Assembly: GCA_963735595.1 (NCBI GenBank)
Contig: CAVTLK010000004.1
Span: forward strand, 512,001-576,000
Direction of reading: 5' to 3'
DNA: 64,000 nt
Origin: an uncultured delta proteobacterium
GTDB lineage: Bacteria; Desulfobacterota; Zymogenia; Zymogenales; Zymogenaceae
The position numbers and the translations under genes are program-made. The notes beneath the pieces were generated by a model, which was given only the letters and a program-made list of their open reading frames with translations, ran no database searches and was not told the origin of the DNA. Below are positions 29,045-56,885 of the stretch, in pieces; the stretch's first letter is position 1, and each line of letters starts with the position of its first letter.

Positions 29045-30850
29045 ATGGATTCTTCCTTTATAAAATACCTTGCGGTTTTTATTGCTTCGCTGGGGATCTC
29101 ACTCGTTGGGACCCGCGCGCTGATCTCGCTCGGCCCCGTAATAGGGTGGGTCGAAAAAATAAAAAAAGACCGCTGGCACTCCAAGCCGACGGCCAAGCTC
29201 GGCGGAATCGCCATATATATCGCCCTCATGGTCGTCACAATCCTCGCTTTCTGGCCCCCGACAGAGATGAAGATCATAGGGTTGTTAGCCGGTACGACCG
29301 TGATCTTTATTCTCGGTCTGGTCGACGATCTGAAATCCGTTTCTCCGGGGATTAAGATTGTCGTGGAGGTGGCCGCTGCGGCCGTGGTGGTTGCCTTCGG
29401 CGTCTATTCGGAATACTTCAACCCGTTTTTCGGTATTCCCCTCACGATCTTCTGGATAGTGGCGATTACCAATGCGTATAACCTCATCGATAACATGGAT
29501 GGCCTGGCTTCCGGGATTGCGGCGATTTCGGCCATGACCTTGTTCGCGCTGTCGGCGATTATGGGCTGGGCGGACACGGCAATCCTCTCGGCCGTGATGT
29601 GCGGGGCGGCACTCGGATTTCTGCACTATAACTTTAATCCTGCGCGGATCTTCATGGGGGACTGCGGGGCGCTGACGATCGGCTTTTATCTCTCGGTCGT
29701 TACGCTGATCGGGTCGATGACCTATATGAGCAACCTTATCCTGACACTCGTCGCCCCGATCCTCGTTATGGCGGTTCCGATACTTGATACGGCTTTCGTC
29801 ACGACTCTCAGGGCGGTTTCCGGCCGACGGGTCTACGAGGGCGGTAAGGACCACACCTCTCATCGCCTCGTTATCATGGGACTGTCTGAAAAAAGATCGG
29901 TCCTCGCGATATACCTCTTTTCGCTGGTCTTCGGCGGCTTCGCGGTGTTTCTCGCATTTCCGGGGGCAAGCTACCTGCTCGTCTGGACGCTCCTGGTCAT
30001 CTCCCTGGTATTTCTGTTTTTACTGGGGCTCTTCCTGAGCGGGCCGGATCTCAGGGAGATAGAGAACCGCGTTCGCGCCAACAAGGGTCCTAACGGGATC
30101 ATCGCGCTTCTCATTAAGAAAAGAAACATTGTCGTCAAGATCGCCGCCGATGCGTTGATTGTCGCGGCATCATATATCCTGGCCTACTACCTGATGGGAA
30201 ACGGCTCCGTCGGCCGGGCCGAGGGGGTCCTCATCGGGAGGTCTCTGCCTATATTCGTTTTTTTCCAGATGACCTCGTTCTACTTGTTCGGGATTTATCG
30301 CGGAGTATGGAAATATGTCTCGTTTGGGGATATGATACGGATCGTTGAGGCGGCCCTGGCGGGCACGGCGATCTCATCCCTTATCCTGTTTCTCTTCACC
30401 TTTTTTGCGGGCTATTCGGCGTCCCTGGTGATCGTCTATTTCTTTATCATGACCTTTTTCATAGCCGCGCGGGCTGCAAGCATCAGGGGCTTTACCGATT
30501 TTTTTACCCGCCATCGAGCCCGGCGGGCGGAAAAGAGGGTCCTTATCTTCGGGGCCGGGGACTCGGGTAACGCCGTCCTCCGGGAGATACTCAATAACGG
30601 CGGGCCGGACCGCCTGCCGCTGGCCTTCATCGATGACGATCCCTCCAAGGTCGGCAAGATCATCAATGGGATCGAGGTCCTGGGTACCCGCCACGATCTG
30701 GGCCGGGTAATCCGCGAGAATAAGGCCGACGAGGTAATCGTGGCCGTCAGTAATCTTCCCGCCGAGACCCGGCGGTATATTCAGCGTGTCTGCAAGGAAT
30801 TGGGAATCGCCGTTGTGAGGGTATCGGGAATCTTTACTGTAGATGGATAA
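29045..30850 (+). CDS. MraY/WecA-like polyprenyl-phosphate sugar-1-phosphate transferase fused to a CapD-like N-terminal membrane/Rossmann module
   Basis: GLVDD, NLIDNMDG, NFNPARIFMGD, DHTSHRL; C-terminal GIYRGVWKY, GAG.SG, FIDDD. Confidence 0.85.
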   Translation: MDSSFIKYLAVFIASLGISLVGTRALISLGPVIGWVEKIKKDRWHSKPTAKLGGIAIYIALMVVTILAFWPPTEMKIIGLLAGTTVIFILGLVDDLKSVSPGIKIVVEVAAAAVVVAFGVYSEYFNPFFGIPLTIFWIVAITNAYNLIDNMDGLASGIAAISAMTLFALSAIMGWADTAILSAVMCGAALGFLHYNFNPARIFMGDCGALTIGFYLSVVTLIGSMTYMSNLILTLVAPILVMAVPILDTAFVTTLRAVSGRRVYEGGKDHTSHRLVIMGLSEKRSVLAIYLFSLVFGGFAVFLAFPGASYLLVWTLLVISLVFLFLLGLFLSGPDLREIENRVRANKGPNGIIALLIKKRNIVVKIAADALIVAASYILAYYLMGNGSVGRAEGVLIGRSLPIFVFFQMTSFYLFGIYRGVWKYVSFGDMIRIVEAALAGTAISSLILFLFTFFAGYSASLVIVYFFIMTFFIAARAASIRGFTDFFTRHRARRAEKRVLIFGAGDSGNAVLREILNNGGPDRLPLAFIDDDPSKVGKIINGIEVLGTRHDLGRVIRENKADEVIVAVSNLPAETRRYIQRVCKELGIAVVRVSGIFTVDG

Positions 30851-31792
30851 CGATATGGAATGTCTGGTAACCGGGGGTGCCGGTTTCATCGGTTCGCACA
30901 TAGCTGAGACGCTCCTGAAGTCGGGCAGAAAGGTGCGTATTCTGGATAACTTTTACACCGGGAGGCGGCAAAATATTGCCTCGTTCGTCCGCGATATAGA
31001 GCTGATCGAAGGAGATCTCAGAGACCAGGGCGCCGTCGCCAGGGCGGTGCGCGGAGTGGACGTGGTCTTTCACCAGGCCGCCATACCGTCCGTCCCCCGT
31101 TCCGTCCGTGAGCCCCGGCTTACCCACGACGTGAATGTCAACGGCACCCTGGGGCTGCTTCTCGCGGCAAAGGACGCCGGGGTTTCGCGATTCGTGTACG
31201 CGTCGTCCTCCTCCGCTTACGGCGATACGCCGACGCTCCCCAAGGACGAAGAAATGCCCCCCTCGCCCCTGTCGCCTTATGCCGTTCAGAAGCTCATGGG
31301 GGAATACTATACCCGCGTATTCTACCTCGTCTACGGGATGCCGACGGTGGCGCTGCGTTACTTCAATGTCTTCGGCCCCCGGCAGGACCCCGCGTCGGAA
31401 TATGCCGCGGTCATCCCGAAGTTCATCACGCTGATGATGGGGGGAAACCACCCCTTATTTACGGAGACGGTGCCCAGACGCGGGACTTTACCTACATTGA
31501 AAACGTCGTTTCGGCCAATATACTGGCGGCCGACGACACCCGATGCCTGGGGGAAGTCATGAACATTTCCACCGGGCAGCAACTTGGTCTGATCGAGCTT
31601 GCCAAGGCAATCGGGAGCCTGCTGGGGACCTCGATCGACCCGACCTTTGATCCCCCCAGGGACGGCGATATCAAGCATTCGTTCGGCAGCATCGAAAAGG
31701 CACAGAGGCTGCTGGGGTATTCCGTGCGGGTCGGCATGGATGAGGGACTCGCTCGCACGATACGATGGTACCGGGAAGGGACGCCGACGTGA
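30843..31792 (+). CDS. NAD-dependent epimerase (UDP-GlcNAc/Glc 4-epimerase-like); frameshift in G-run near 31440
   Basis: TGGAGFIG, SSSAYG, YAVQK, RYFNVFGPRQ; IYGDGAQTRDFT resumes in shifted frame. Confidence 0.85.
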
Positions 31793-32751
31793 AAGGCGCG
31801 CCGAGGTTCTCATTCATCATCGTCTGTTTCAATAACCGGGTGCTCCTGCCGTCATGCATCGATTCGATCTACGGTACCGTTGAACGGTCGCGCCATGAGA
31901 TCATCGTCTCTGATAACGGATCGACGGACGGGAGCGATCGGCTCATTCGGGAGCAGTGGCCCGATATCCATCTCATCGAAAACGGAAGGAACCTCGGGTT
32001 TGCCGCGGCAGTCAATCGGGGAATCGCCGTGGCCCGGGGCGATTATATTGTGCTGATGAACTCAGACGCCCGGCTGACCCCGGGCGCCCTGGAGACGATC
32101 GGGCGGTTCATGGACGACCATCCCGATGTGGCGATTGCCGGAGGGCGGCTTATGGACCCTTCCGGAAGCTCCCCAGAACAGCGCGGCCGCCTTCCCGGGG
32201 ATGGCCACGGAATTCGGCCTTAAGCCGCTGCTCAAGATCCTTTTTCCGCGGCGTTTCCCGGGCAGTGCGGCGGGCAGGCGCGATCCTTTTGACGTCGATT
32301 CGATCATCGGGGCGCTCATGGTCGTGCGGATGGACGCCGTTCGGCGCGTGGGGGGGCTCGACGAGGACTACTTTTTCTTCCTCGAGGAGACCGATTGGTG
32401 CCTGAGGATGAAGCGGGCCGGGATGCGGGTAGTGGTCGTGCCGAAGGCGCGCATCATCCACGACCAGGGGAAAACCGCGAAGCGGTACCCGCTCAGGGCC
32501 AAGGTGGAATATTACCGCTCGCTGGTTACCTTCATGGAGAAGAACCGCGGACGATTTCTACCGAGCGGTCTTTGTTGGAGGACTCGTGATCCGGTTCAGC
32601 GTGGATATTCTGCTGCAGGCGCTGTATGTGCTGTGTTACCCTGTTTATTGCCCGGAGTCCCCGGGAGCGATGCAAGCGGTATGCGGGCCTCCTCGTATGG
32701 GTCCTCCTGGGGCGGCCCGCCTCATGGGGACTTTCCGGTATCAATCAGTAG
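31789..32751 (+). CDS. Glycosyltransferase family 2 (several apparent frameshifts)
   Basis: DNGSTDG, NLGFAAAVN, NSD, FFLEETDWC; C-terminus ...GRPASWGL in a shifted frame. Confidence 0.75.
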
Positions 32752-32760
32752 CGGAGACGT

Positions 32761-33798
32761 GTGCCAATGGACCAGTTATACCCGACGATAGACATGATTG
32801 GCTGTATCGACCGGTTCGGTGAGGCGGGGGTCCTCGTCGTAGGGGACGTCATGGTCGATGAGTTCGTCTGGGGAAGAGTGGAGCGGATATCCCCCGAGGC
32901 GCCGGTCCCGGTTGTGGAGGTTCAGCGTGAGGCGCTGCTGTTGGGCGGCGGCGCAAACGTTGTCAATAATATTCGGGCGCTGGGCGGCCGTGTTTTCCTG
33001 GCCGGCGTCGTGGGTAAGGACGCGATGGGCGGCCACCTCATCGACGAGCTGGCCAAGATCGGGGTTGCGCCGGACGGGATCGTAACGCTCTCGGACCGAC
33101 CCACTACCATCAAGACACGCGTGATAGCCCACCATCAGCAGGTCGTTCGAGTTGACCGTGAAAGACGCATAAAGATCGACAAGGAGACGACCGACAGGAT
33201 CATCGGGTATGCCCGGTCTCTCGGCACACAGATCCGCGCCATTATTATCTCCGACTACGGGAAGGGGGTCATCAACGAGCGTCTCGTCTCCGGCCTTGTC
33301 GATTACGCCGCAAAGAACGACCTGATCGTCTCGGTCGACCCGAAAGTGGAAAACTTCTCGATATACAGGAACGTGACCGTTATCACTCCCAACCACCACG
33401 AGGCCGCCAGCGGAGTCCACCACAAGATTGTCGATGACGAGAGCCTCCTGGCTACCGGAAGACTCATACTCTCCAGGCTCGGCTGTAAAAACGTCATCAT
33501 TACCCGTGGAGAGGACGGGATGACCCTCTTCGAGGCGCCGGGCGGTATCGTCCACATCCCGACGGTGGCGCGCGAGGTCTTTGATGTGACCGGCGCCGGG
33601 GATACCGTTATATCGACGCTGACGCTGGCGCTGGCAGCCGGCGCCGGCATGCGGGATGCCGCGGTTATCTCCAACTACGCCGCAGGCATCGTCGTGGGTA
33701 AGGTTGGAACGGCAGTCACTACCGCCGGGGAACTAAAGGAAGAAATACGGCGCGCTATCGACGCCAAGGAAAGGCCCGGCGCACCGGGCAGGTCATAA
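32761..33798 (+). CDS. rfaE1: D-glycero-beta-D-manno-heptose-7-phosphate kinase (stand-alone HldE domain I)
   Basis: RISPEAPVPVV, SDYGKG, TPN, DVTGAGDT. Confidence 0.93.
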   Translation: MPMDQLYPTIDMIGCIDRFGEAGVLVVGDVMVDEFVWGRVERISPEAPVPVVEVQREALLLGGGANVVNNIRALGGRVFLAGVVGKDAMGGHLIDELAKIGVAPDGIVTLSDRPTTIKTRVIAHHQQVVRVDRERRIKIDKETTDRIIGYARSLGTQIRAIIISDYGKGVINERLVSGLVDYAAKNDLIVSVDPKVENFSIYRNVTVITPNHHEAASGVHHKIVDDESLLATGRLILSRLGCKNVIITRGEDGMTLFEAPGGIVHIPTVAREVFDVTGAGDTVISTLTLALAAGAGMRDAAVISNYAAGIVVGKVGTAVTTAGELKEEIRRAIDAKERPGAPGRS

Positions 33799-33848
33799 GG
33801 CGACGGGATATCCCGATCGCAGACAGTAACAAGGGAGACGGTGACTGT

Positions 33849-34731
33849 ATGAAGACAGTCTGTTCGATGACCGGATACGGCGAAGGGACGTGGGATTCAA
33901 GCGAGGCGACCTATCTGCTCGTTGCCAAGTCGCTCAATCACCGGTTCTTGGAGACGCGGGTAAAGCTCCCGCCGAAATACGATGCATGGGAATTCGAGAT
34001 ACAGCGAAAGATCAAGGAGCGCTTTGACCGGGGACGAATAGACCTCGTGGTCACGGAGGCGGCGGGGCAGCAGAAGAAGACGATGCCGGCCATGGATCTT
34101 GATCTGGCCGCCCGGTACGTTGAACTGATGAACGCGCTCAAGGACGACCTCTCGCTTCCCGGAGAGGTGAACCTGGATATCGTCTGCCGGATGCGGGATG
34201 TCATCTATCAGTCGGCGCCGACACTCGATATGCAGAACGCCTGGGCAGAGTTTGAGCCGATTCTCGAAGGGGTTTTAGAGCGGCTGGAAAAGAGCCGCGC
34301 CCAGGAAGGGGAGGCGCTGTCGGCCGACCTCATGGGACGGCTGGAACACCTGCGGCAGATCAGCTGCGGCCGTCGAGAAAGAGGCCCCCGGGATGATCAC
34401 GCACTTTCGGGAGCGATTGATCGGGCGGATCAAGGAACTTTCCGACGACCGCCTCAACGTCGACCGGATCGAGGAGGAGGTGGTGATCTTCTCCGATCGC
34501 GTCGACTTTACCGAGGAGTTGGTCAGGCTTACGGCCCATGTCGGCGCGTTCGGCCGGACGATTGAGGCCGGCGGACCGATGGGAAGGAAGCTCGACTTCC
34601 TGCTCCAGGAGATGGGACGCGAGATCAACACGATCGGCAACAAAAACGTGAGCTCGGATATCTCCGAGCAGGTCGTTTCAGCGAAGGTGGAGCTTGAAAA
34701 GATGAGGCAGCAGGTTCAAAATATCGAGTAG
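33849..34731 (+). CDS. yicC: YicC/YloC family endoribonuclease (frameshift near 34362)
   Basis: SMTGYG, SLNHRFLE; C-terminal GRKLDFLLQEM.RE.NT, QVQNIE. Confidence 0.88.
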
Positions 34732-34740
34732 GACTGGCAC

Positions 34741-35013
34741 ATGGAATTAAAGCTATTGAGTCTCGGGTTCGGAAACTCCGTCATCGTCAGCCGGATCGTC
34801 GCGGTCCTTTCCCCCGATTCATCGCCGATGAAACGGCTCAAAGACGAGGCAAAAGGCAAGGGCCTCTTGATAGACGCAACTCACGGCAGGAAGACGCGCT
34901 CCATCATCATCACCGATTCGCATCATGTCATCCTTTCGGCGGTGCAGTCCGACACGATTGCCCAGCGCCTGGCCGCCGACGACCGGACCGAAAAGAAGTG
35001 GGGCGCACAGTAG
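34741..35013 (+). CDS. DUF370/RemA family protein
   Basis: [28 protein letters not shown]; conserved yicC-remA-gmk order. Confidence 0.88.
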
Positions 35014-35045
35014 CGCCCGAGGCAACCGGGGGAATACCGAGTACC

Positions 35046-35679
35046 ATGAACCAACCGATTACCGATACGCCACAAACGGGGATCGCCTTTATCCTCTCGG
35101 CGCCGTCCGGCGCGGGGAAGACGACGATTGCCCGTGAGGCGGTCAATAGGATCGGGAAAATCCGCATCAGCGTCAGCCACACCACCAGGAGGCCGCGACC
35201 GCGCGAGACCGACGGAACGGATTACCACTTCGTTACCTCCGAGCGTTTTACCCTGATGCAGGACGAGGGGGCGTTTCTCGAGGCGGCATGACGTCCACGG
35301 CAACTGGTACGGCACCCACGAGGGAGAGGTGCTTCCGTATATTTCCGCAGGTACCGACGTGATCCTGGATATCGACGTCCAGGGGGCGCTGATCATCAGG
35401 GAGAAGATCAACGCGGTGCTCATCTTCATCCTCCCCCCGAGCATGGAAGAGCTGATGCGCAGGCTCAGGGTTCGTGATACCGAGGAGCAGGACGCGATAA
35501 AACGCCGGATTGAAAACGCCCGCCGTGAGATCTCCCAGGCATCATACTACGACTACCTGGTGATCAACGACGATTTCTCCCGGGCAGTGGCTGACGTTAC
35601 AACCATCATCGGAGCCGCCAGGATGGGTATGGTCCGTAACCGCGAGGTTATCGATGAGTTCATCAAGAACAACAAATAG
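35046..35679 (+). CDS. gmk: Guanylate kinase (frameshift near 35287)
   Basis: SAPSGAGKTT, SHTTR.PR, VHGNWYGT, DIDVQGA, YDYLVIND. Confidence 0.9.
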
Positions 35680-36381
35680 CGGCCCGCGAAAAGATCGAAT
35701 CATCGTCGCGCTGGATCAGGAAGACCTGGCCGCGGCGCAAAGGCTCGTGAAGTCGCTTTCCGGCCTCATCTCCTTTTTCAAGGTGGGCAGCGAGCTGTTT
35801 TCGGCCGCCGGTCCCGACGCCGTCAGGATGGTGCGTGACGGCGGGGCGGAGGTATTCCTCGATCTCAAGTATCACGACATCCCCAACACGGTCTCGCGGG
35901 CGGTGCGGAGCTGCGGCCGGCCTCGGGGTTTCGCTCGTAAACGTCCATACGCTGGGCGGTGTCCAGATGATGCGGGCGGCGGCCGACTCGGCGCGCGAAA
36001 TAGATCCCCGATACCCGCGTTATCGGCGTCACGGTATTGACCTCCATGGACGCAACCGACCTGTTGCGGGTGGGTATCGACGACGCGCCCGAGGAGGCGG
36101 TTGTGAGGCTGGCGCGGCTGGCGCGCGAGGCGGGTCTTGCCGGCGTGGTATCGTCCGCCCGGGAGGTGGCGCGGCTCCGGGAGGAGTTCGGTCCCGGTTT
36201 TATCCTCATGACCCCCGGCATCAGGCCCGCGGGCGCAGACGTGGGCGACCAGAAACGGATCGTGACGCCGCGCGAGGCCTTCGAGGCCGGCGCGGACTAT
36301 ATCGTGGTGGGAAGGCCGATCGCGGCGGCGCCCGACCCGCGGGCGGCGGCCGAATCGATTATCGAGGAGATCGGGGAGTAA
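35654..36381 (+). CDS. pyrF: Orotidine-5'-phosphate decarboxylase (frameshifts near 35910 and 36008)
   Basis: IIVALD, FKVG, FLDLKYHDIPNTV, VTVLTS, TPGIRP, DQKR, VGRPI. Confidence 0.9.
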
Positions 36382-36442
36382 GCGGCGCGACCCACAGTAT
36401 CCGTCGCGATCGTCCATTCCAAAGAACTACGCCATATATATA

Positions 36443-36482
36443 GTCATTGCGAGGAGGCCGTCAGGCCGACGCGGCAATCCCC
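36443..36482 (+). repeat. CGTC-type palindromic repeat, second copy
   Basis: GTCATTGCGAGGAGGCC-GTCA-GGCCGACGCGGCAATCCCC, matches 10032-10073. Confidence 0.8.
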
Positions 36483-36583
36483 GTGATTGCCAGGAGGCCG
36501 TGGACTCGGCAATGCGCTTCGGCGCCCGCGAAGGACGGCATTGACAAGTGAAACCTGCCAGTATTCTTGAATCTCGTGGCCTT

Positions 36584-37236
36584 CTATCGCAGTGACTTAA
36601 CGAACACCAGCGTCCTGACTGTCGGCGGGGACTTCTTTTCCCAGAGCTTGGTGGGGAGCTCCTTGAAGACGGTGAAGCCCTCCTTGCGGTAAAAGGGGAG
36701 GGCCTTTTTGTTCTCGGTGGAGGTGACCAGGTGCACGCCCGGGCGCGCCGGCCGCGCGCATCGAGTCTAAGAACCGCGCCATGAGGCGGCCGCCGAGGCC
36801 CTGCCGCTGATACTCGGGCAAGACGTTCATGTGCAGGTGGGCGGGGAATTTCGTGACAAGGTCTTCGGTGAAGAGCTCCTTTTCGTACTCGGCGTGATCG
36901 GTAAGGCCCAACAGAAACAGGACGTCGCCCGGATGGCGGAAGAGCGTCCGGGTGAACGCGCGCCTGATGATCCGGGGGACGATGAGGCGGTCAAACGCCT
37001 CACGCTGCGCCCCGGTGTCGGCTGACCCGATGATGTAGCCGACGGCCTTTCCGTTGTCGTCGGCCACGAAAGCAGTGCTCCGGCTCATAGTCGAGATAGT
37101 AGGCGGCAAAGAGGAGGCCGAAGAGCTCGGCGTCCTTGAAATAGGGCGCCGCGTCTTCACCGAAATAGCCGGTCCGGTGGCAGATCGTGACGACGGCGTC
37201 CCGGTCCCTTTTCTCGTATCTCCTGATTTCGACCAT
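36584..37236 (-). CDS. GNAT family N-acetyltransferase (frameshifts near 37075 and 36740)
   Basis: IRRY...D, PAHLHMNVLPEYQRQGLG, GVHL...N..A..FY.K.GF. Confidence 0.8.
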
Positions 37237-37329
37237 GACGCGAGTATACGAGATATCTCCCCGGAAGGCAACGGGGATATTTTGGAGCTCCTGGACCGGG
37301 GTACCCGCCCCAATATTTACATATTATAA

Positions 37330-37358
37330 TTGACTTATTGCCGGAAATATGATAATAA
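37330..37358 (+). promoter_or_regulatory. Putative sigma70 promoter of the Hint-protein gene
   Basis: TTGACT (37330-37335), 17 nt, TAATAA (37353-37358) in an AT-rich divergent spacer. Confidence 0.45.
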
Positions 37359-37386
37359 TGGTAGCCTATCATCAAAGGAGGCTGCT

Positions 37387-38179
37387 ATGAAGAGACGTAG
37401 TCTTTTATCGGTCGTCTTTGCGCTATCTTTTCTCCTTGTCCTTTCGCTCTCGGCGGGCGCCGTCGAGGGGATTCTGGTCGGCCCGGAAGGTCTGCCGCTG
37501 GAGGGGTTCTCGAATGTCTACATCATCGACGGCAAGCCCCAGCCGGTCTATAATTTTGCGGAACACACGTGGTACGACGTCTTCATCGTCGGAACGGACG
37601 AAAACGGGGTGCCGATCTGCAACGTTGCCCCGGACCCGTCCGACAACCAGGAACAGGGACGCGATAAGGGGAACCAAAGGAGATTCGAGTGCTTCTCCGG
37701 CACCACACTCGTGCTGATGGCCGACGGCTCGGCGAAGATGATCAAGGATATCGCAATCGGCGAGAAGGTCATGGGATACGATCTGGCTGCCGGGCGGCTT
37801 TACCTCGTGCGAGGTGGTCGACAACTACCCGACGGTCAAGAGCGACTATTACATCCTCAACGGCCTGAAGGTCACGGCGGGCCACCCGTTCTACGCCAGG
37901 AACTTCGGCCCCACCCCGGCGAGCCTCGGGCCGGCTCCGGTAACGACCGTCATGACCCAGGACCTGAAGCCATACGCGACGCTCTACGGTTTCAACCCGG
38001 CGAAGGACTCAGGGCTCAAGAAGATCACCCTCACCTCCGTTATCCATGTCAGCGAGCCCGGGACGTTCTATAACCTCCAGGTGGACGGGACCAGGAATTT
38101 CTTCGTGTCGCCGGACGGAAAGGTATTTGTCGTGGCCGGCGTGAAAATTAAATTTAGTGTACTAACAAGAGCAATCTGA
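37387..38179 (+). CDS. Secreted Hint-domain protein (frameshift near 37800)
   Basis: AAGGAGG SD, signal peptide; Hint blocks CFSGTTLVLMADG, VTAGHPF, FYNLQVDGTRNFFV. Confidence 0.8.
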
Positions 38180-38869: not shown

Positions 38870-40070
38870 ATGGCAAAGAAGAAGTTTGAGCGGACGAAGC
38901 CGCACGTGAACGTTGGGACGATCGGTCACATTGACCACGGCAAGACGACGTTGACGGCGGCGATTACGCGTGTGCTGGCGGCGCAGGGCAAGGGTTTTGC
39001 GGATTACGTACCGTTTGACCAGATTGACAAGGCGCCGGAGGAGAAGGAGCGCGGTATCACGATTGCGACGGCGCACGTGGAGTACTCAGACGGAGAAGCG
39101 GCACTATGCGCACGTGGACTGTCCCGGGCACGCGGACTATATCAAGAACATGATTACGGGCGCGGCGCAGATGGACGGTGCGATTTTGGTTGTTGGCGCC
39201 AACGACGGTCCGATGCCTCAGACGCGGGAGCACATATTGCTGGCGCGGCAGGTTGGCGTTCCGTACATGGTGGTATTTTTAAACAAGGTTGACATGGTTG
39301 ACGATCCGGAGCTGATCGAGCTGGTAGAGCTGGAGCTTCGGGAGTTGTTGACTGCGTACGAGTTTCCGGGTGAGGAGATACCGATCATTCGGGGCAGTGC
39401 GTTGAAGGCATTGGAGAGCGGTGATCCGAATAGTCCGGACACGAAGTGCATATTCGAGTTACTGGACGCATTGGACAGCTACATTCCGGTGCCGGAGCGT
39501 CCGGTTGATAAGCCCTTCCTGATGCCGATCGAGGACGTATTTTCGATTTCGGGACGTGGGACGGTTGTGACGGGCCGTATTGACCGGGGTATTGTAAAGA
39601 CGGGCGAGGAGGTAGAGATTGTTGGTATTCGTCCGACGGTCAAGACGGTATGCACGGGCGTGGAGATGTTCAGGAAGACGCTGGACGAGGGCCGCGCGGG
39701 GGACAACGTTGGGGTATTGCTGCGGGGCACGAAGCGGGACGATGTAGAGCGTGGGCAGGTTGTGGCCAAGCCGGGCAGCATCAAGCCGCACAAGAAGTTC
39801 AAGGCGTCGGTATATATATTGACGAAGGAAGAGGGTGGTCGCCACACGCCGTTTTTCCCCGGGTATCGTCCGCAGTTTTATTTTCGGACGACTGACGTGA
39901 CGGGAGTGTGCACGTTGCCTGAGGGGACGGAGATGGTGATGCCGGGGGATAACACGAATTTGGCCATTGAGTTGATCACGCCGATCGCGATGGAGAAAGA
40001 GCTTCGATTCGCGATTCGCGAGGGCGGCAGGACCGTGGGCGCCGGCGTCGTCAGCGACATCATGGAGTAA
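38870..40070 (+). CDS. tuf: Elongation factor Tu, copy 1 (one extra base near 39088)
   Basis: [18 protein letters not shown]; nearly identical to 55686-56885. Confidence 0.95.
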
Positions 40071-40079
40071 GGCGATACC

Positions 40080-40229
40080 ATGAGAGATATCATTATGCTT
40101 GCCTGCACGGAATGCAAGCAGAGAAACTATTCGACGACGAAAAACAAGAAGAGGACTCCGGACCGGCTCGAATTTAAGAAATATTGCAGATTCTGCAAGA
40201 CGCATACGCCGCACAAGGAGACCAAATAA
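40080..40229 (+). CDS. rpmG: 50S ribosomal protein L33 (Zn-binding type)
   Basis: Manual translation [17 protein letters not shown]...[17 protein letters not shown]. Confidence 0.95.
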
Positions 40230-40247
40230 CAGGCTCGATTGTTCAAC

Positions 40248-40324
40248 AGGCCAGTAGCTCTAACGGTTAGAGCACCGGACTCCAAATCCGGGTGCTGGGG
40301 GTTCGAATCCCTCCTGGCCTGCCA
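40248..40324 (+). tRNA. tRNA-Trp(CCA)
   Basis: Cloverleaf, CTCCAAA loop, CCA; canonical position before secE. Confidence 0.96.
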
Positions 40325-40385
40325 TTGACTTACAGTAAGGGGAACGGTTTTTCCAAAACGGTCGTTTCCCGTATGTGATATACAA

Positions 40386-40583
40386 ATGAAAGATACCTGG
40401 GAAAAGATACTTCAGTTCTTTCGTGAGGTGCGGGTCGAAATCAAGAAGGTCACCTGGCCGACTCGAAAGGAAACCATCGCGTCCACGATCGTCGTCTTGA
40501 TAACGACAATTATCATCGGGGCCTTCCTGGGGATAGTAGATTTCTTCCTCTCGACAGGCGTAGAGAAGATCCTGACGGGCTAA
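40386..40583 (+). CDS. secE: Preprotein translocase subunit SecE
   Basis: EIKKVTWP motif plus single TM. Confidence 0.95.
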   Translation: MKDTWEKILQFFREVRVEIKKVTWPTRKETIASTIVVLITTIIIGAFLGIVDFFLSTGVEKILTG

Positions 40584-40589
40584 CGATGA

Positions 40590-40985
40590 TGTGAAAGGGC
40601 TCATCCCCGCTGCTGAAGGTACGGTAATGCAGGGCGGTTGGGGACGGCCCGGCGAAGATCAGGTTCGGCGGATCAGCCGTTTTCCCGGGTACCGGAAATA
40701 TCCGTGAGACGGACGGCCCGCCGCGTAAGGCGACCAGAGGTAATTCGTAGGTGGGACGGCATCCCTTGAGATGCTCGATATAGAGAATAGAGACTACCGG
40801 CGCGAACCCGATGCCCTCGCAACAAACGGTGCAAGGGATGAGAGGGATTTTTGCCGTCTGCAAACCGGGATACCGAAGAGGGTGATACCCGGCAAAAGGC
40901 GGAAGGCATCGTAAGGACGCCGATTAGGAGCGGCCGGAAGTCAAACGTCCCAAATATATAATTGACAGAATAAGTACGAATGACG
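40590..40985 (+). ncRNA. Candidate large structured RNA / nusG leader of unknown family
   Basis: No credible ORF; many hairpins and a seven-level nested domain (see findings). Confidence 0.55.
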
Positions 40986-40989
40986 ATAC

Positions 40990-41520
40990 ATGGCACATAA
41001 ATGGTATATAGTCCATACATACTCGGGATATGAGCAGACCGCAAAATCCGCCCTCGAAGCGCGCGTCAGGTCAATGAGTAAAGAAGACGAGATCATCGAG
41101 GTAATGGTTCCCGCGGAAAAAGTGGTGGAGATGGTCAAGGGTGAAAAGCGGACGACTATGCGCAAGTTCTTCCCCGGCTATATGCTCGTCAAAATGGAGC
41201 TGAACGAGGAGACTTGGCACATCGTCCGTAACACCCCTAAGGTGACCGGTTTTGTCGGAGGTTCTACCCGTCCACCCGCCCTGACCGATAGGGAAGTGGA
41301 AGAGATTCTGAAGCAGATGGAGGACGGGTCCACCAAGCCCAAGCCGAAGGTGACCTTTGAGAAGGGGGACGTCATTACCGTTACCGACGGACCCTTTGCG
41401 ACGTTCACCGGAAGCGTGGATGAAGTCTATCCCGATAAGGGGAAGGTAAAGGTGATGGTGTCTATATTCGGGAGAGCCACACCGGTAGAATTAGAATTTT
41501 TTCAGGTGAAGAAGGGATAG
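40990..41520 (+). CDS. nusG: Transcription termination/antitermination factor NusG
   Basis: WYIVHTYSGYE, FPGY, TPKVTGFVG, KOW domain, IFGR.TPVEL. Confidence 0.97.
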   Translation: MAHKWYIVHTYSGYEQTAKSALEARVRSMSKEDEIIEVMVPAEKVVEMVKGEKRTTMRKFFPGYMLVKMELNEETWHIVRNTPKVTGFVGGSTRPPALTDREVEEILKQMEDGSTKPKPKVTFEKGDVITVTDGPFATFTGSVDEVYPDKGKVKVMVSIFGRATPVELEFFQVKKG

Positions 41521-41535
41521 AGAAAAGGAGTCGCT

Positions 41536-41961
41536 ATGGCAAAGAAGATCACGGGAATGATAAAACTTCAGATACCGGCCGGGCAGGCGACACCGTCGCC
41601 TCCGGTTGGACCCGCGCTCGGTCAGCACGGCGTAAATATCATGGAGTTCTGCAAGATATTCAACGCGAGAACCCAGGCTCAGCCGGGGATGATTATCCCG
41701 GTGGTGATTACCGTTTACGCGGATCGTTCGTTCTCATTTATCACCAAAACCCCTCCGGCGGCGATTCTGATCAAGAAGGCCGTGGGGATCGTCAAAGGGA
41801 GCGGCACGCCGAATAAGGAAAAGGTGGGAACAATCACCAAAAGCCAGATCGAGGAAATCGCAAGGACGAAGCTTCCCGATCTCAATGCCGTAGACCTGCC
41901 CGGGGCGGTGCACATTATTGAAGGCACCGCGCGGAGCATGGGAATAGATATTGTGGAATAA
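41536..41961 (+). CDS. rplK: 50S ribosomal protein L11
   Basis: [17 protein letters not shown]. Confidence 0.97.
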
Positions 41962-41980
41962 GTAAAACCGGAGAGTTGAA

Positions 41981-42685
41981 ATGCCGAGACACGGAAAGCT
42001 ATTTCGTAACATCAAGACCAAGATCGATACCGCAAAACGGTTTGAATTCGACGAGGCCCTTGAGATCATAACAAAGAATCCTGCCGCCAAATTCGACGAG
42101 AGCGTCGACATAGCACTGAGGCTTGGGGTCAACCCGAAGCACTCGGACCAGATGGTGCGCGGGGCGGTAGTGCTCCCGAACGGAACGGGGAAGTCCGTGC
42201 GGGTGCTGGTTTTCGCGAAGGGCGAGAAGGAAAAAGAGGCCATGGACGCCAAGGCGGATTACGTCGGCGCGGAGGACCTTGTGGAGAAGATCAGCGGTGG
42301 CTGGTTTGATTTCGACAAGGCTATCGCGACGCCGGACATCATGGGCCTGGTCAGCAAGCTCGGCAAGATTCTCGGTCCCCGGGGTTTGATGCCAAACGCA
42401 AAGATCGGCACCGTCACCTTTGACGTGGGCAGGGCGATCGCGGAGCTCAAGGCCGGTAAGGTCGATTTCAGGGTCGATAAGAACGGGATTCTCCACGTGG
42501 CGGTCGGTAAGCTTTCCTTCGGACCGGCCAAACTTAAAGAGAATATCATAGCCTTTCTGGAAGCGGTCATGAAGCTCAAACCGTCGACAAGCAAGGGAAC
42601 CTATCTGAGGGGGGTGGCGATCTCCTCAACGATGGGTCCGGGGATAAAGATCGATCCGGTATACGTAAGGAATCTCCTGAAATAA
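41981..42685 (+). CDS. rplA: 50S ribosomal protein L1
   Basis: [23 protein letters not shown]. Confidence 0.97.
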
Positions 42686-42719
42686 ACATAGAGATACAGA
42701 ACACATAGTATATATACCT

Positions 42720-42866
42720 CCCCTGTCAGAGACAGCCGGTGCACCTTGCGTGCTTAATCCGAAAGGGCCCGCCGAGACCAGGGTGAAAACGACATGATCC
42801 CTCACGATTTTTGGGGCATGCACGGGCGTTTGCTTTCATGACGCGGGAGAGACGAAGGAGGTTTGG
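42720..42866 (+). promoter_or_regulatory. L10 leader (autogenous rplJL regulatory RNA)
   Basis: GAGACAG.CGG...TTAA...CC.GCCGAGA pattern in the rplA-rplJ spacer. Confidence 0.65.
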
Positions 42867-43397
42867 GTGAAAAAGAAGGAAAAGGAAGTGATCGTATCTG
42901 CGATGCACACGGCCCTTACCGATTCCAGTGTCCTCTTCCTGACGGACTATCGGGGCCTCACGGCAGAGCAGATCAACGAGCTGAGGGGTGGGTTCCGCAA
43001 GGTCGGCGTTCAGTACCGGGTGGTTAAGAATAACCTCCTCAGGCGCGCCGCCGAAGGAACCGATTTTGCGCGCGTCATTGAAAGCGTTACGGGTCCTACC
43101 GGGATGATCGTCTCCAAATCGGACCCCGTTGAGGCCTCCAAAATCCTCGTGGAGTACATGGCCAAGTACAACGTCCTTTCTTTTAAGGCGGGCGTTCTCA
43201 GCGGCAAGCAGTTAGGCGAGGCCGACATTAAGTCGATCGCCAAACTCCCGCCGCGCGACGTGTTGCTGGCCAAGCTCCTCGGGACCATGAACTCGGTTCC
43301 GGGAGGATTTGTTGGAGTGCTGTCCGGAGTTATGAGGAAGTTCGTGTATGCCCTGGCGGCCGTCAAGGAAGCCAAAGAAAGCGGAAAATTAGCCTAA
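42867..43397 (+). CDS. rplJ: 50S ribosomal protein L10
   Basis: DYRGLT, VVKNNL, LP.RDVLLAKL; GTG start after AAGGAGG. Confidence 0.95.
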   Translation: MKKKEKEVIVSAMHTALTDSSVLFLTDYRGLTAEQINELRGGFRKVGVQYRVVKNNLLRRAAEGTDFARVIESVTGPTGMIVSKSDPVEASKILVEYMAKYNVLSFKAGVLSGKQLGEADIKSIAKLPPRDVLLAKLLGTMNSVPGGFVGVLSGVMRKFVYALAAVKEAKESGKLA

Positions 43398-43409: not shown

Positions 43410-43856
43410 ATGTCGGAAGAGACTATTGTCAAGGAAGAGAAAAAGAAGACGGCAAAGGAAGGATCGGCCGCCAAGATATCCAAAGAGGACGTCATCGCCT
43501 TTATCGAGAGCATGACGGTCCTCGAGCTTGCCGAGCTCGTTAAGGAGCTGGAAGAAAAATTCGGGGTTTCCGCCTCCGCGCCTATGGTTATGGCCGGTGT
43601 TGCTGCCGGCGGCGGTGGTTCCGAGGCCGCGGCGGTCGAGGAGAAGACCGAATTTGACGTCGTCCTGACCGAGGCGGGCGCCGAGAAGATCAAGGTCATC
43701 AAGGTAGTGCGGGAGTTCACTACGCTGGGCCTTAAGGAGGCCAAGGATCTCGTCGAATCGGCTCCGAAGCCGGTGAAAGAGGCCGTTTCAAAAGAGACGG
43801 CCGAAGAAATCAAGAAGAAGCTCGAAGAAGTCGGCGCAAAAGTGGAAATCAAATAA
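43410..43856 (+). CDS. rplL: 50S ribosomal protein L7/L12 with N-terminal extension
   Basis: [31 protein letters not shown]. Confidence 0.96.
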
Positions 43857-43867
43857 GTCATCGCTTT

Positions 43868-43893
43868 TGGGGTGGGGGGGTACCCCCACCCCA
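43868..43893. other. Strong hairpin in the rplL-rpoB spacer
   Basis: TGGGGTGGGGG/CCCCCACCCCA; no 3' U-tract. Confidence 0.5.
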
Positions 43894-44012
43894 TCACCGT
43901 ACATTCATCGAACGTACTCAAATACATTATCTGTCTTCTCGATATTCATTTTCATTTCTCATGTCATATTCGGACTCATTACTCGTGACAACGTAACAGT
44001 GAGGGGTTTTTT

Positions 44013-55685: not shown

Positions 55686-56885
55686 ATGGCAAAGAAGAAG
55701 TTTGAGCGGACCAAGCCACACGTGAACGTCGGGACGATCGGTCACATTGACCACGGCAAGACGACGTTGACGGCGGCGATTACGCGTGTGCTGGCGGCGC
55801 AGGGCAAGGGTTTTGCGGATTACGTACCGTTTGACCAGATTGACAAGGCGCCGGAGGAGAAGGAGCGTGGGATCACGATTGCGACGGCGCACGTAGAATA
55901 CTCGACTGAGAAGCGGCACTATGCGCACGTGGACTGTCCCGGGCACGCGGACTATATCAAGAACATGATTACGGGCGCGGCGCAGATGGACGGTGCGATT
56001 TTGGTTGTTGGCGCCAACGACGGTCCGATGCCTCAGACGCGGGAGCACATATTGCTGGCGCGGCAGGTTGGCGTTCCGTACATGGTGGTATTTTTAAACA
56101 AGGTTGACATGGTTGACGATCCGGAGCTGATCGAGCTGGTAGAGCTGGAGCTTCGGGAGTTGTTGACTGCGTACGAGTTTCCGGGTGAGGAGATACCGAT
56201 CATTCGGGGCAGTGCGTTGAAGGCATTGGAGAGCGGTGATCCGAATAGTCCGGACACGAAGTGCATATTCGAGTTACTGGACGCATTGGACAGCTACATT
56301 CCGGTGCCGGAGCGTCCGGTTGATAAGCCCTTCCTGATGCCGATCGAGGACGTATTTTCGATTTCGGGACGTGGGACGGTTGTGACGGGCCGTATTGACC
56401 GGGGTATTGTAAAGACGGGCGAGGAGGTAGAGATTGTTGGTATTCGTCCGACGGTCAAGACGGTATGCACGGGCGTGGAGATGTTCAGGAAGACGCTGGA
56501 CGAGGGCCGCGCGGGGGACAACGTTGGGGTATTGCTGCGGGGCACGAAGCGGGACGATGTAGAGCGTGGGCAGGTTGTGGCCAAGCCGGGCAGCATCAAG
56601 CCGCATAAGAAGTTCAAGGCGTCGGTATATATATTGACGAAGGAAGAGGGTGGTCGCCACACGCCGTTTTTCCCCGGGTATCGTCCGCAGTTTTATTTTC
56701 GGACGACTGACGTGACGGGAGTGTGCACGTTGCCTGAGGGGACGGAGATGGTGATGCCGGGGGATAACACGAATTTGGCCATTGAGTTGATCACGCCGAT
56801 CGCGATGGAGAAAGAGCTTCGATTCGCGATTCGCGAGGGCGGCAGGACCGTGGGCGCCGGCGTCGTCAGCGACATCATGGAGTAA
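55686..56885 (+). CDS. tuf: Elongation factor Tu, copy 2 (intact)
   Basis: Full-length 399 aa EF-Tu. Confidence 0.99.

Follow-up and report, generated by a model that had tools for sequence, protein, structure and literature searches.

Leaders of ribosomal protein (r-protein) operons typically have a narrow distribution (PMC3616713, PMC7247131), and outside Gammaproteobacteria and Firmicutes the control of these operons has been described as under-catalogued (PMC3616713). The main text of a survey of 20 such leaders makes no mention of secE, rplK or L11 (PMC7247131). NusG-dependent pauses are marked by a -11 TTNTTT -6 tract lying behind a hairpin (PMC9963633). An N-T pair in NusG has been proposed as pro-pausing, and an E. 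coli-type His is considered in the same work (bioRxiv 10.1101/2022.10.21.513233). Little is described in the literature searched on the control of nusG expression outside E. coli; PMC7819879 and PMC5793797 describe the locus and the OxyS control of E. coli nusG.

The DNA analysed here (the window) is a stretch of 64,000 nucleotides from an uncultured delta proteobacterium, in which a tRNA cluster, tuf, rpmG, tRNA-Trp, secE, a 406-nt spacer, nusG, rplK and rplA follow one another (Table 1). The spacer length given in a preliminary description of the locus was borne out by open reading frames and TIGR models; rplA was identified from its own sequence and the gene order. The short spacers before rplK and rplA leave no room there for a separate leader, and the three genes nusG, rplK and rplA lie 15-22 nt apart in genomes carrying the element described below. 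Short nusG-rplK spacers are frequent in non-carrier genomes too, and the idea that the element substitutes for a missing nusG-rplK leader was therefore rejected.

Table 1. Coordinates of genes and elements around the secE-nusG spacer (positions in the window)
Feature	Position	Strand	Description
secE	40386-40583	+	ORF; TIGR00964 above cut-off; gene upstream of spacer
5' variable domain	40584-40746	+	lineage-specific hairpins; 102-175 nt in homologues
P1 5' strand	40752-40758	+	pairs with 40946-40952, closing the 3' domain; pairing probability 0.98
P2 hairpin	40759-40774	+	near-invariant arms, constant 6-nt spacing; 95% of cells paired
Possible uORF	40771-40914	+	47 codons; 30-42 in six homologues; out of frame in three
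Purine/A-rich linker	40775-40791	+	TA.A conserved in the alignment
P3 5' strand	40792-40801	+	pairs with 40933-40942
Stem I	40798-40856	+	basal CGG/CCG, AACC(C)/GG; covarying apical stem 40814-40837
T-tract and invariant TTGCCGT	40847-40857	+	directly 3' of hairpin; candidate pause signal (inferred)
Variable 3' arm	40872-40932	+	length and sequence differ by subclade; identity 0.29-0.44 between subclades
P1 3' strand	40946-40952	+	partner of 40752-40758
AT-rich tail before nusG start	40953-40989	+	conserved in genus; no strong Shine-Dalgarno
nusG	40990-41520	+	ORF; TIGR00922 above cut-off; first gene downstream of spacer
rplK then rplA	41536-42685	+	spacers 15 and 19 nt

Several further features of the window and its relatives were recorded. 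A frameshift near 39086 interrupts the tuf gene (38870-40070), and at this point one base is missing from RNA-library contigs of other organisms; because several other genes are split as well (the 33849-36443 region, RNase III), assembly indel errors in the window's genome are suggested. A second copy of tuf lies near 55686-56885. At 37330-38179 (+) a Hint-type domain (Pfam Hom_end_hint above cut-off) is encoded, together with a hydrophobic N-terminus, by one or more split ORFs; RNA-library contigs reach a depth of 9-28 there, and the region is absent from the syntenic alignment of G002. The rplL-rpoB spacer measures 475 nt in the sister-genus genome G005 (L056) versus 159 nt in the window (43854-44012). 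Elsewhere on C4, the contig that contains the window (75304-78751 of C4), a palindromic 14-mer occurs eight times at a spacing of about 288 nt, pointing to a tandem repeat array.

Searches anchored on NusG yielded three genomes of the same genus, five metagenome contigs and one sister-genus genome, so that ten distinct homologous spacers including that of the window are available (identical ones counted once). They are 384-450 nt long and all lie between secE and nusG. They fall into lineages A (G000, which is the window's genome, with G003 and L043), B (G001, L040, L041), C (G002, L042, L044) and D (G005, the sister genus). Scans of 141 genomes with a covariance model and of 401 with a relaxed pattern each located the element in five, invariably between secE and nusG and in single copy; the five genomes matched are those from which the model was built, and the independent test is a held-out profile of the nine genus sequences, which recovers the spacer of G005 at E=4e-6. 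Among the genomes searched, the family is limited to two genera related to Ca. Zymogenaceae (Desulfobacterota). The other five genomes of the family also have long secE-nusG spacers (110-389 nt), unrelated to the element. In the other three genera of the family the best model score within the spacer is 10 bits (E=1.4), and their spacers do not align with the element. Long unrelated spacers from other family genera are found at L007:625-906, L008:669-950, L009:600-988 and L006:573-847; a block toward the 3' end is conserved between the spacers of G007 and G008, and the same two genomes have very G-rich nusG-rplK spacers of 182-200 nt. At the 21 best-scoring loci outside the family (51 such genomes searched), secE and nusG are separated by 6-155 nt, with a median of 36.

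Judged by the alignment, conservation above that of synonymous sites is limited to a core of about 120 nt (40747-40871) and the closing helix. In the three genus genomes 77 of the 121 core positions are invariant (64%), compared with 37% at 825 four-fold sites taken from neighbouring genes (p=3e-8); with G005 added the values are 48 of 121 (40%) and 23% (p=9e-5), the boundaries of the core and the helix pairs having been chosen after the alignment was viewed. The 3' strand of P1 with the tail is 52% invariant in the genus (p=0.02) and 12% with G005. The 5' half (19% and 11%, respectively) is not above neutral, and the 3' arm reaches 23% and 9%. The 5' hairpins and the 3' arm are likely to be drifting, G-rich filler, and the AT-rich tail is likely to be the nusG initiation region. 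Averaged over its whole length, the spacer is as invariant as the four-fold sites (37% versus 37%), and its overall conservation (0.63-0.65) is far exceeded by that of the rplA-rplJ spacer (42686-42866; 0.86-0.87, corresponding to 86-87% identity across the genus). A G004 region homologous to the rplA-rplJ spacer gives a sub-threshold L10_leader match.

The secE-nusG spacer is real and single-copy, and it is not one uniformly structured RNA of 400 nt. The preliminary description had called the insert of about 400 nt highly structured; the minimum free energy z-scores of -1.93 (+) and -2.42 (-) for the whole spacer do not bear this out, since among 247 crude ORF-free controls of 244 nt (drawn from 500 segments found) 21% attain a z of -1.9. 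The 5' half has a folding z of -0.26. The 3' domain has -3.4, a value that 6.5% of the control segments reach. Assignment of the spacer RNA to the + strand finds no support in energy, which does not discriminate; it is favoured by one-sided changes between G-C and G-U pairs.

The absence of a known RNA family was confirmed, as Rfam gave no match in the spacer at E<=1. The best match was at E=2 when the spacer was searched alone with the Rfam 15 covariance models, and six homologous and three other family spacers had no match at E<=5. Identity with RNase P, 6S, SRP or tmRNA was ruled out, the genome's own copies lying elsewhere and scoring above cut-off. Group I and II introns have a conserved catalytic core (P7; domain V). 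They were likewise ruled out: Rfam has no intron match in the spacer, and a GACUA resembling group I P7 is unconserved in homologues, its would-be partner being nusG coding sequence. The spacer is no multicopy MITE either, being single-copy in the genome and fixed in its context; a search for a second copy in the genome, plasmids, phages and viral contigs found none. Fourteen viral pattern matches score as chance, and two matches of a 21-nt pattern in non-relatives (L045, L049) share the motif alone. On the + strand, no site for an intrinsic terminator (GC stem plus U run) was found.

All nine helices named in the preliminary description are complementary, and three of them (P1, P2 and the outer 4 bp of P3) recur across lineages, CCGGG/CCCGG doing so partly (3-5 of 5 pairs). 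Its central helix CGATGCC/GGCATCG has a pairing probability of 0.00 and keeps 1-2 of 7 pairs in the seven homologues outside lineage A, and its outer helix ATTCGTA/TACGAAT drops to 5, 3 and 0 of 7 pairs in homologues. The inner part of the nested 3' fold is largely a matter of one subclade, and the best-supported helix, 40814-40837, had been missed. What stands of the proposed new RNA family is an uncatalogued, conserved, partly covarying structure on the + strand, comprising about 120 nt plus a closing helix and not 400 nt. Among the findings that the description had named as speaking against it, none was clearly made: there is no Rfam family, the spacer is not multicopy and covarying stems exist.

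P1 retains 6-7 of 7 pairs in nine of ten homologues, with one compensatory pair, and its duplex beats shuffles at p<0.05 in seven of ten. An ATG at 40771, in the 3' arm of P2, is invariant; as four of the six P2 pairs never vary, no covariation can be seen in this hairpin. Between subclades, two compensatory pairs are seen among the outer 4 bp of P3, which are weak in four of ten. Stem I occurs in the isolated minimum free energy fold of nine of the ten homologues. Its apical stem has four compensatory (double-change) pairs together with changes preserving G-U, and its internal loop (40810-13 / 40838-43) is invariant, asymmetric and purine-rich. In full-length folds its basal pairs lose to P3/P5 in seven of ten. 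The TTGCCGT that follows is kept in all ten sequences, while the T-tract itself varies. A three-way-junction fold of the core was rejected: 94% of its cells are paired, its own helices lack covariation, and it has higher energy than the extended hairpin in all ten. Pairing of P5 with the variable arm over a long range did no better than shuffles and was also discarded.

In the 27-pair consensus 91.9% of cells are paired, versus 30-49% in slid controls, and seven pairs have double changes. When the tree is taken into account, the apical stem has 4 double changes against 1.5 expected (p=0.019), and the whole set 7 against 4.7 (p=0.14, not significant); the paired-cell p-values of the tree simulation are too generous owing to the long branch of G005, and covariation rests on four deep lineages. 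Of 16 held-out pairwise comparisons on the + strand, one had more double changes than expected at p<0.05. Broken pairs were fewer than expected (p<0.05) in 6 of 16, versus 2 of 12 reverse-strand controls, a test confounded with the conservation of the core. Selection probably acts on the RNA fold, with few lineages behind this estimate.

The 38-codon frame considered earlier to be the best + ORF is surpassed by frames of 43 (40638-40769) and 47 codons (40771-40914). As described, an in-frame TGA lies three codons ahead of the nusG ATG; it recurs in all nine genus-level sequences. No codon-position signal was found in the 47-codon frame (12/11/14 variable columns), where pN is close to pS, and Pfam gave no match; constraint on the core, as read from the alignment, is at the nucleotide level.

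Our preferred but tentative reading is that the element may be a cis-acting feedback leader of nusG-rplK-rplA, working by a pause and Rho-dependent release. Such a leader would set the share of the tuf-rpmG-secE transcript that is continued into nusG-rplK-rplA, and with it the cell's output of NusG and of ribosomal proteins L11 and L1. Stem I would fold as polymerase reaches the T-tract, stabilising a pause there. The paused complex would be pushed toward Rho-dependent release, within the long untranslated stretch, by a product of the downstream genes: NusG acting at the pause, or uL11/uL1 bound to the invariant loop. After read-through, P1 and P3 would close the domain, and the nusG start would stay free. 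We infer from the sequences everything that goes beyond a fold conserved in front of nusG. With its end at 40846, immediately before the T-tract, the hairpin has a geometry that fits a NusG-dependent pause, where the hairpin end lies 11-13 nt before the pause; its outer pairs reach p>0.89 in six of ten sequences, in prefixes of the 3' domain. Compared with TTNTTT, the tract has 3-4 of 5 T in the best register, and the critical last three are complete in seven of ten. The window's NusG has the N-T pair, plus His as in the anti-pausing E. coli NusG, a motif found also in relatives without the RNA element. Rho is encoded in all five genomes tested. RNA-library contigs of relatives cover the spacer and join it to secE (X1, X2, X3) and to nusG (X4), with a summed depth of X1 of 13.6-15.6 over the spacer bins versus 0-4.6 in 20 bins at 29500-37519; these contigs match at about 90% identity, give no information on strand, level or ends, and DNA may be among them. 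Co-transcription of the spacer with its neighbours is weakly indicated by the bridging contigs; no contig joint skipping the spacer occurs among the matches listed.

In a narrower and doubtful version of the leader, a pause before its own gene would be stimulated by NusG, a negative feedback throttling nusG-rplK-rplA, possibly by a two-state switch. Two invariant segments, ACGGCA at 40756 and UGCCGU at 40852, are able to pair with each other at the expense of P1 and P2; this alternative helix has 95% of cells paired and no double change, and is populated above 0.45 solely in truncated folds, in four of ten. If true, this would be RNA-encoded negative feedback on a universal elongation factor. 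In either version, a conserved leader at secE-nusG offers a compact system in which feedback by NusG or L11/L1 can be tested, of small reach in that ten sequences from two genera of uncultured bacteria carry it. As far as searched, the RNA element is undescribed; supplements of motif-discovery papers may list the motif.

Other explanations have to be weighed against a feedback leader. Somewhat unlikely in our view is an element of mRNA processing or stabilisation, in which the long irregular helices would be either a site for RNase III (or another nuclease) or a protective 5' structure, uncoupling the nusG-rplK-rplA mRNA from the tuf-tRNA-secE part. P1 joins both ends of the 3' domain, subclade C spacers fold a long rod, RNase III is encoded in all three genomes tested (its gene split in the window's assembly), RNA contigs from two studies stop at 40772 and 40781, and the E. 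coli secE-nusG leader and rplL-rpoB spacer, which reportedly contain RNase III processing stems, would be a precedent. Yet conservation is lowest in the long rod, which in all ten sequences pairs with the core no better than shuffles do; RNase III does not need invariant unpaired purines; and the contig ends may be assembly branch points, the coverage of X1 running on. We regard as unlikely a translational attenuator, in which a uORF starts from the invariant ATG in the P2 arm and a ribosome over Stem I would couple read-through to translation capacity. That ATG is present in all ten sequences, in seven the frame stays in register and crosses the core without a stop, ending right after C-R-L in five of these, and the indel of subclade A measures 3 nt. 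The results of the coding tests and the Pfam search oppose a translated frame, as do its disruption in L040, L041 and G005, the position of the ATG inside a hairpin and the lack of a Shine-Dalgarno at normal distance.

No better a prospect than the attenuator is a decaying insertion or a neutrally expanded spacer with generic structure, G-rich and folded merely against Rho loading on 400 untranslated bases. The ordinary z of the whole spacer, its overall invariance equal to four-fold sites, a C/G ratio of 0.63-0.75 in all ten spacers and the long unrelated spacers of other family genera all agree with neutrality, but a sharply bounded core covaries and is conserved above neutral; also against this reading are the single copy of the spacer and the chance-level viral matches. 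A closing helix that joins the two ends, and variable insertions around a conserved core, both known from large non-coding RNAs, could suit a trans-acting RNA of about 200 nt (P1 to P1) cut out of the operon transcript. This is improbable, as RNase P, 6S, SRP and tmRNA are all encoded elsewhere, the element is never found apart from nusG, and contigs are no deeper over it than over nusG (contigs cannot give levels). We give very little credence to constraint at the DNA level, with the P2 palindrome acting as an internal promoter or as an operator of nusG-rplK-rplA: the P2 arms never covary and their spacing is constant, but no sigma-70-like site was found in the spacer, the P2 palindrome occurs only four times in 3.6 Mb, similar to other spacings, and the changes in Stem I that preserve G-U indicate RNA.

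Set beside known systems, the locus resembles the RNase III stems reported for E. coli in belonging to the same operon and in having long stems in an untranslated stretch; it differs in position, and here the long stems are the unconserved part. The consensus kink-turn is a 0x3 loop, with tandem GA/AG plus a 3-nt bulge. The element is like it in its tandem G-A/A-G beside a C-G helix and its purine-rich asymmetric loop, in a register that fits eight of ten sequences, and unlike it in that the loop beyond the GA pairs is 2x4; L7Ae protein was found in none of the four genomes tested. With NusG-dependent pauses (B. subtilis trp, rib, tlrB, vmlR; PMC9963633) it shares a hairpin followed by a T-rich tract, an untranslated leader and an N-T NusG, whereas its tract departs from TTNTTT and its candidate target is nusG itself, for which the literature searched has no such loop. 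With r-protein leaders such as those of L1 and L10 it has in common a lineage-restricted structured RNA, an invariant purine-rich internal loop and an r-protein operon (PMC3616713, PMC7247131), though no Rfam leader model matches it. Unlike the L1 leader, which lies before rplK or rplA (PMC3616713), it sits before nusG, and it has no mimic of the 23S H76-78 bulge, the topology of its loop differing from the genome's own 23S site (PMC3616713, PMC10931766); a narrow pattern for the L1-type site found none in the ten spacers or at 40200-42900 of the window. The position and the missing rRNA mimic set the element apart from the L1 leader class; in its proposed working it would be closest to r-protein leaders and pause-containing leaders.
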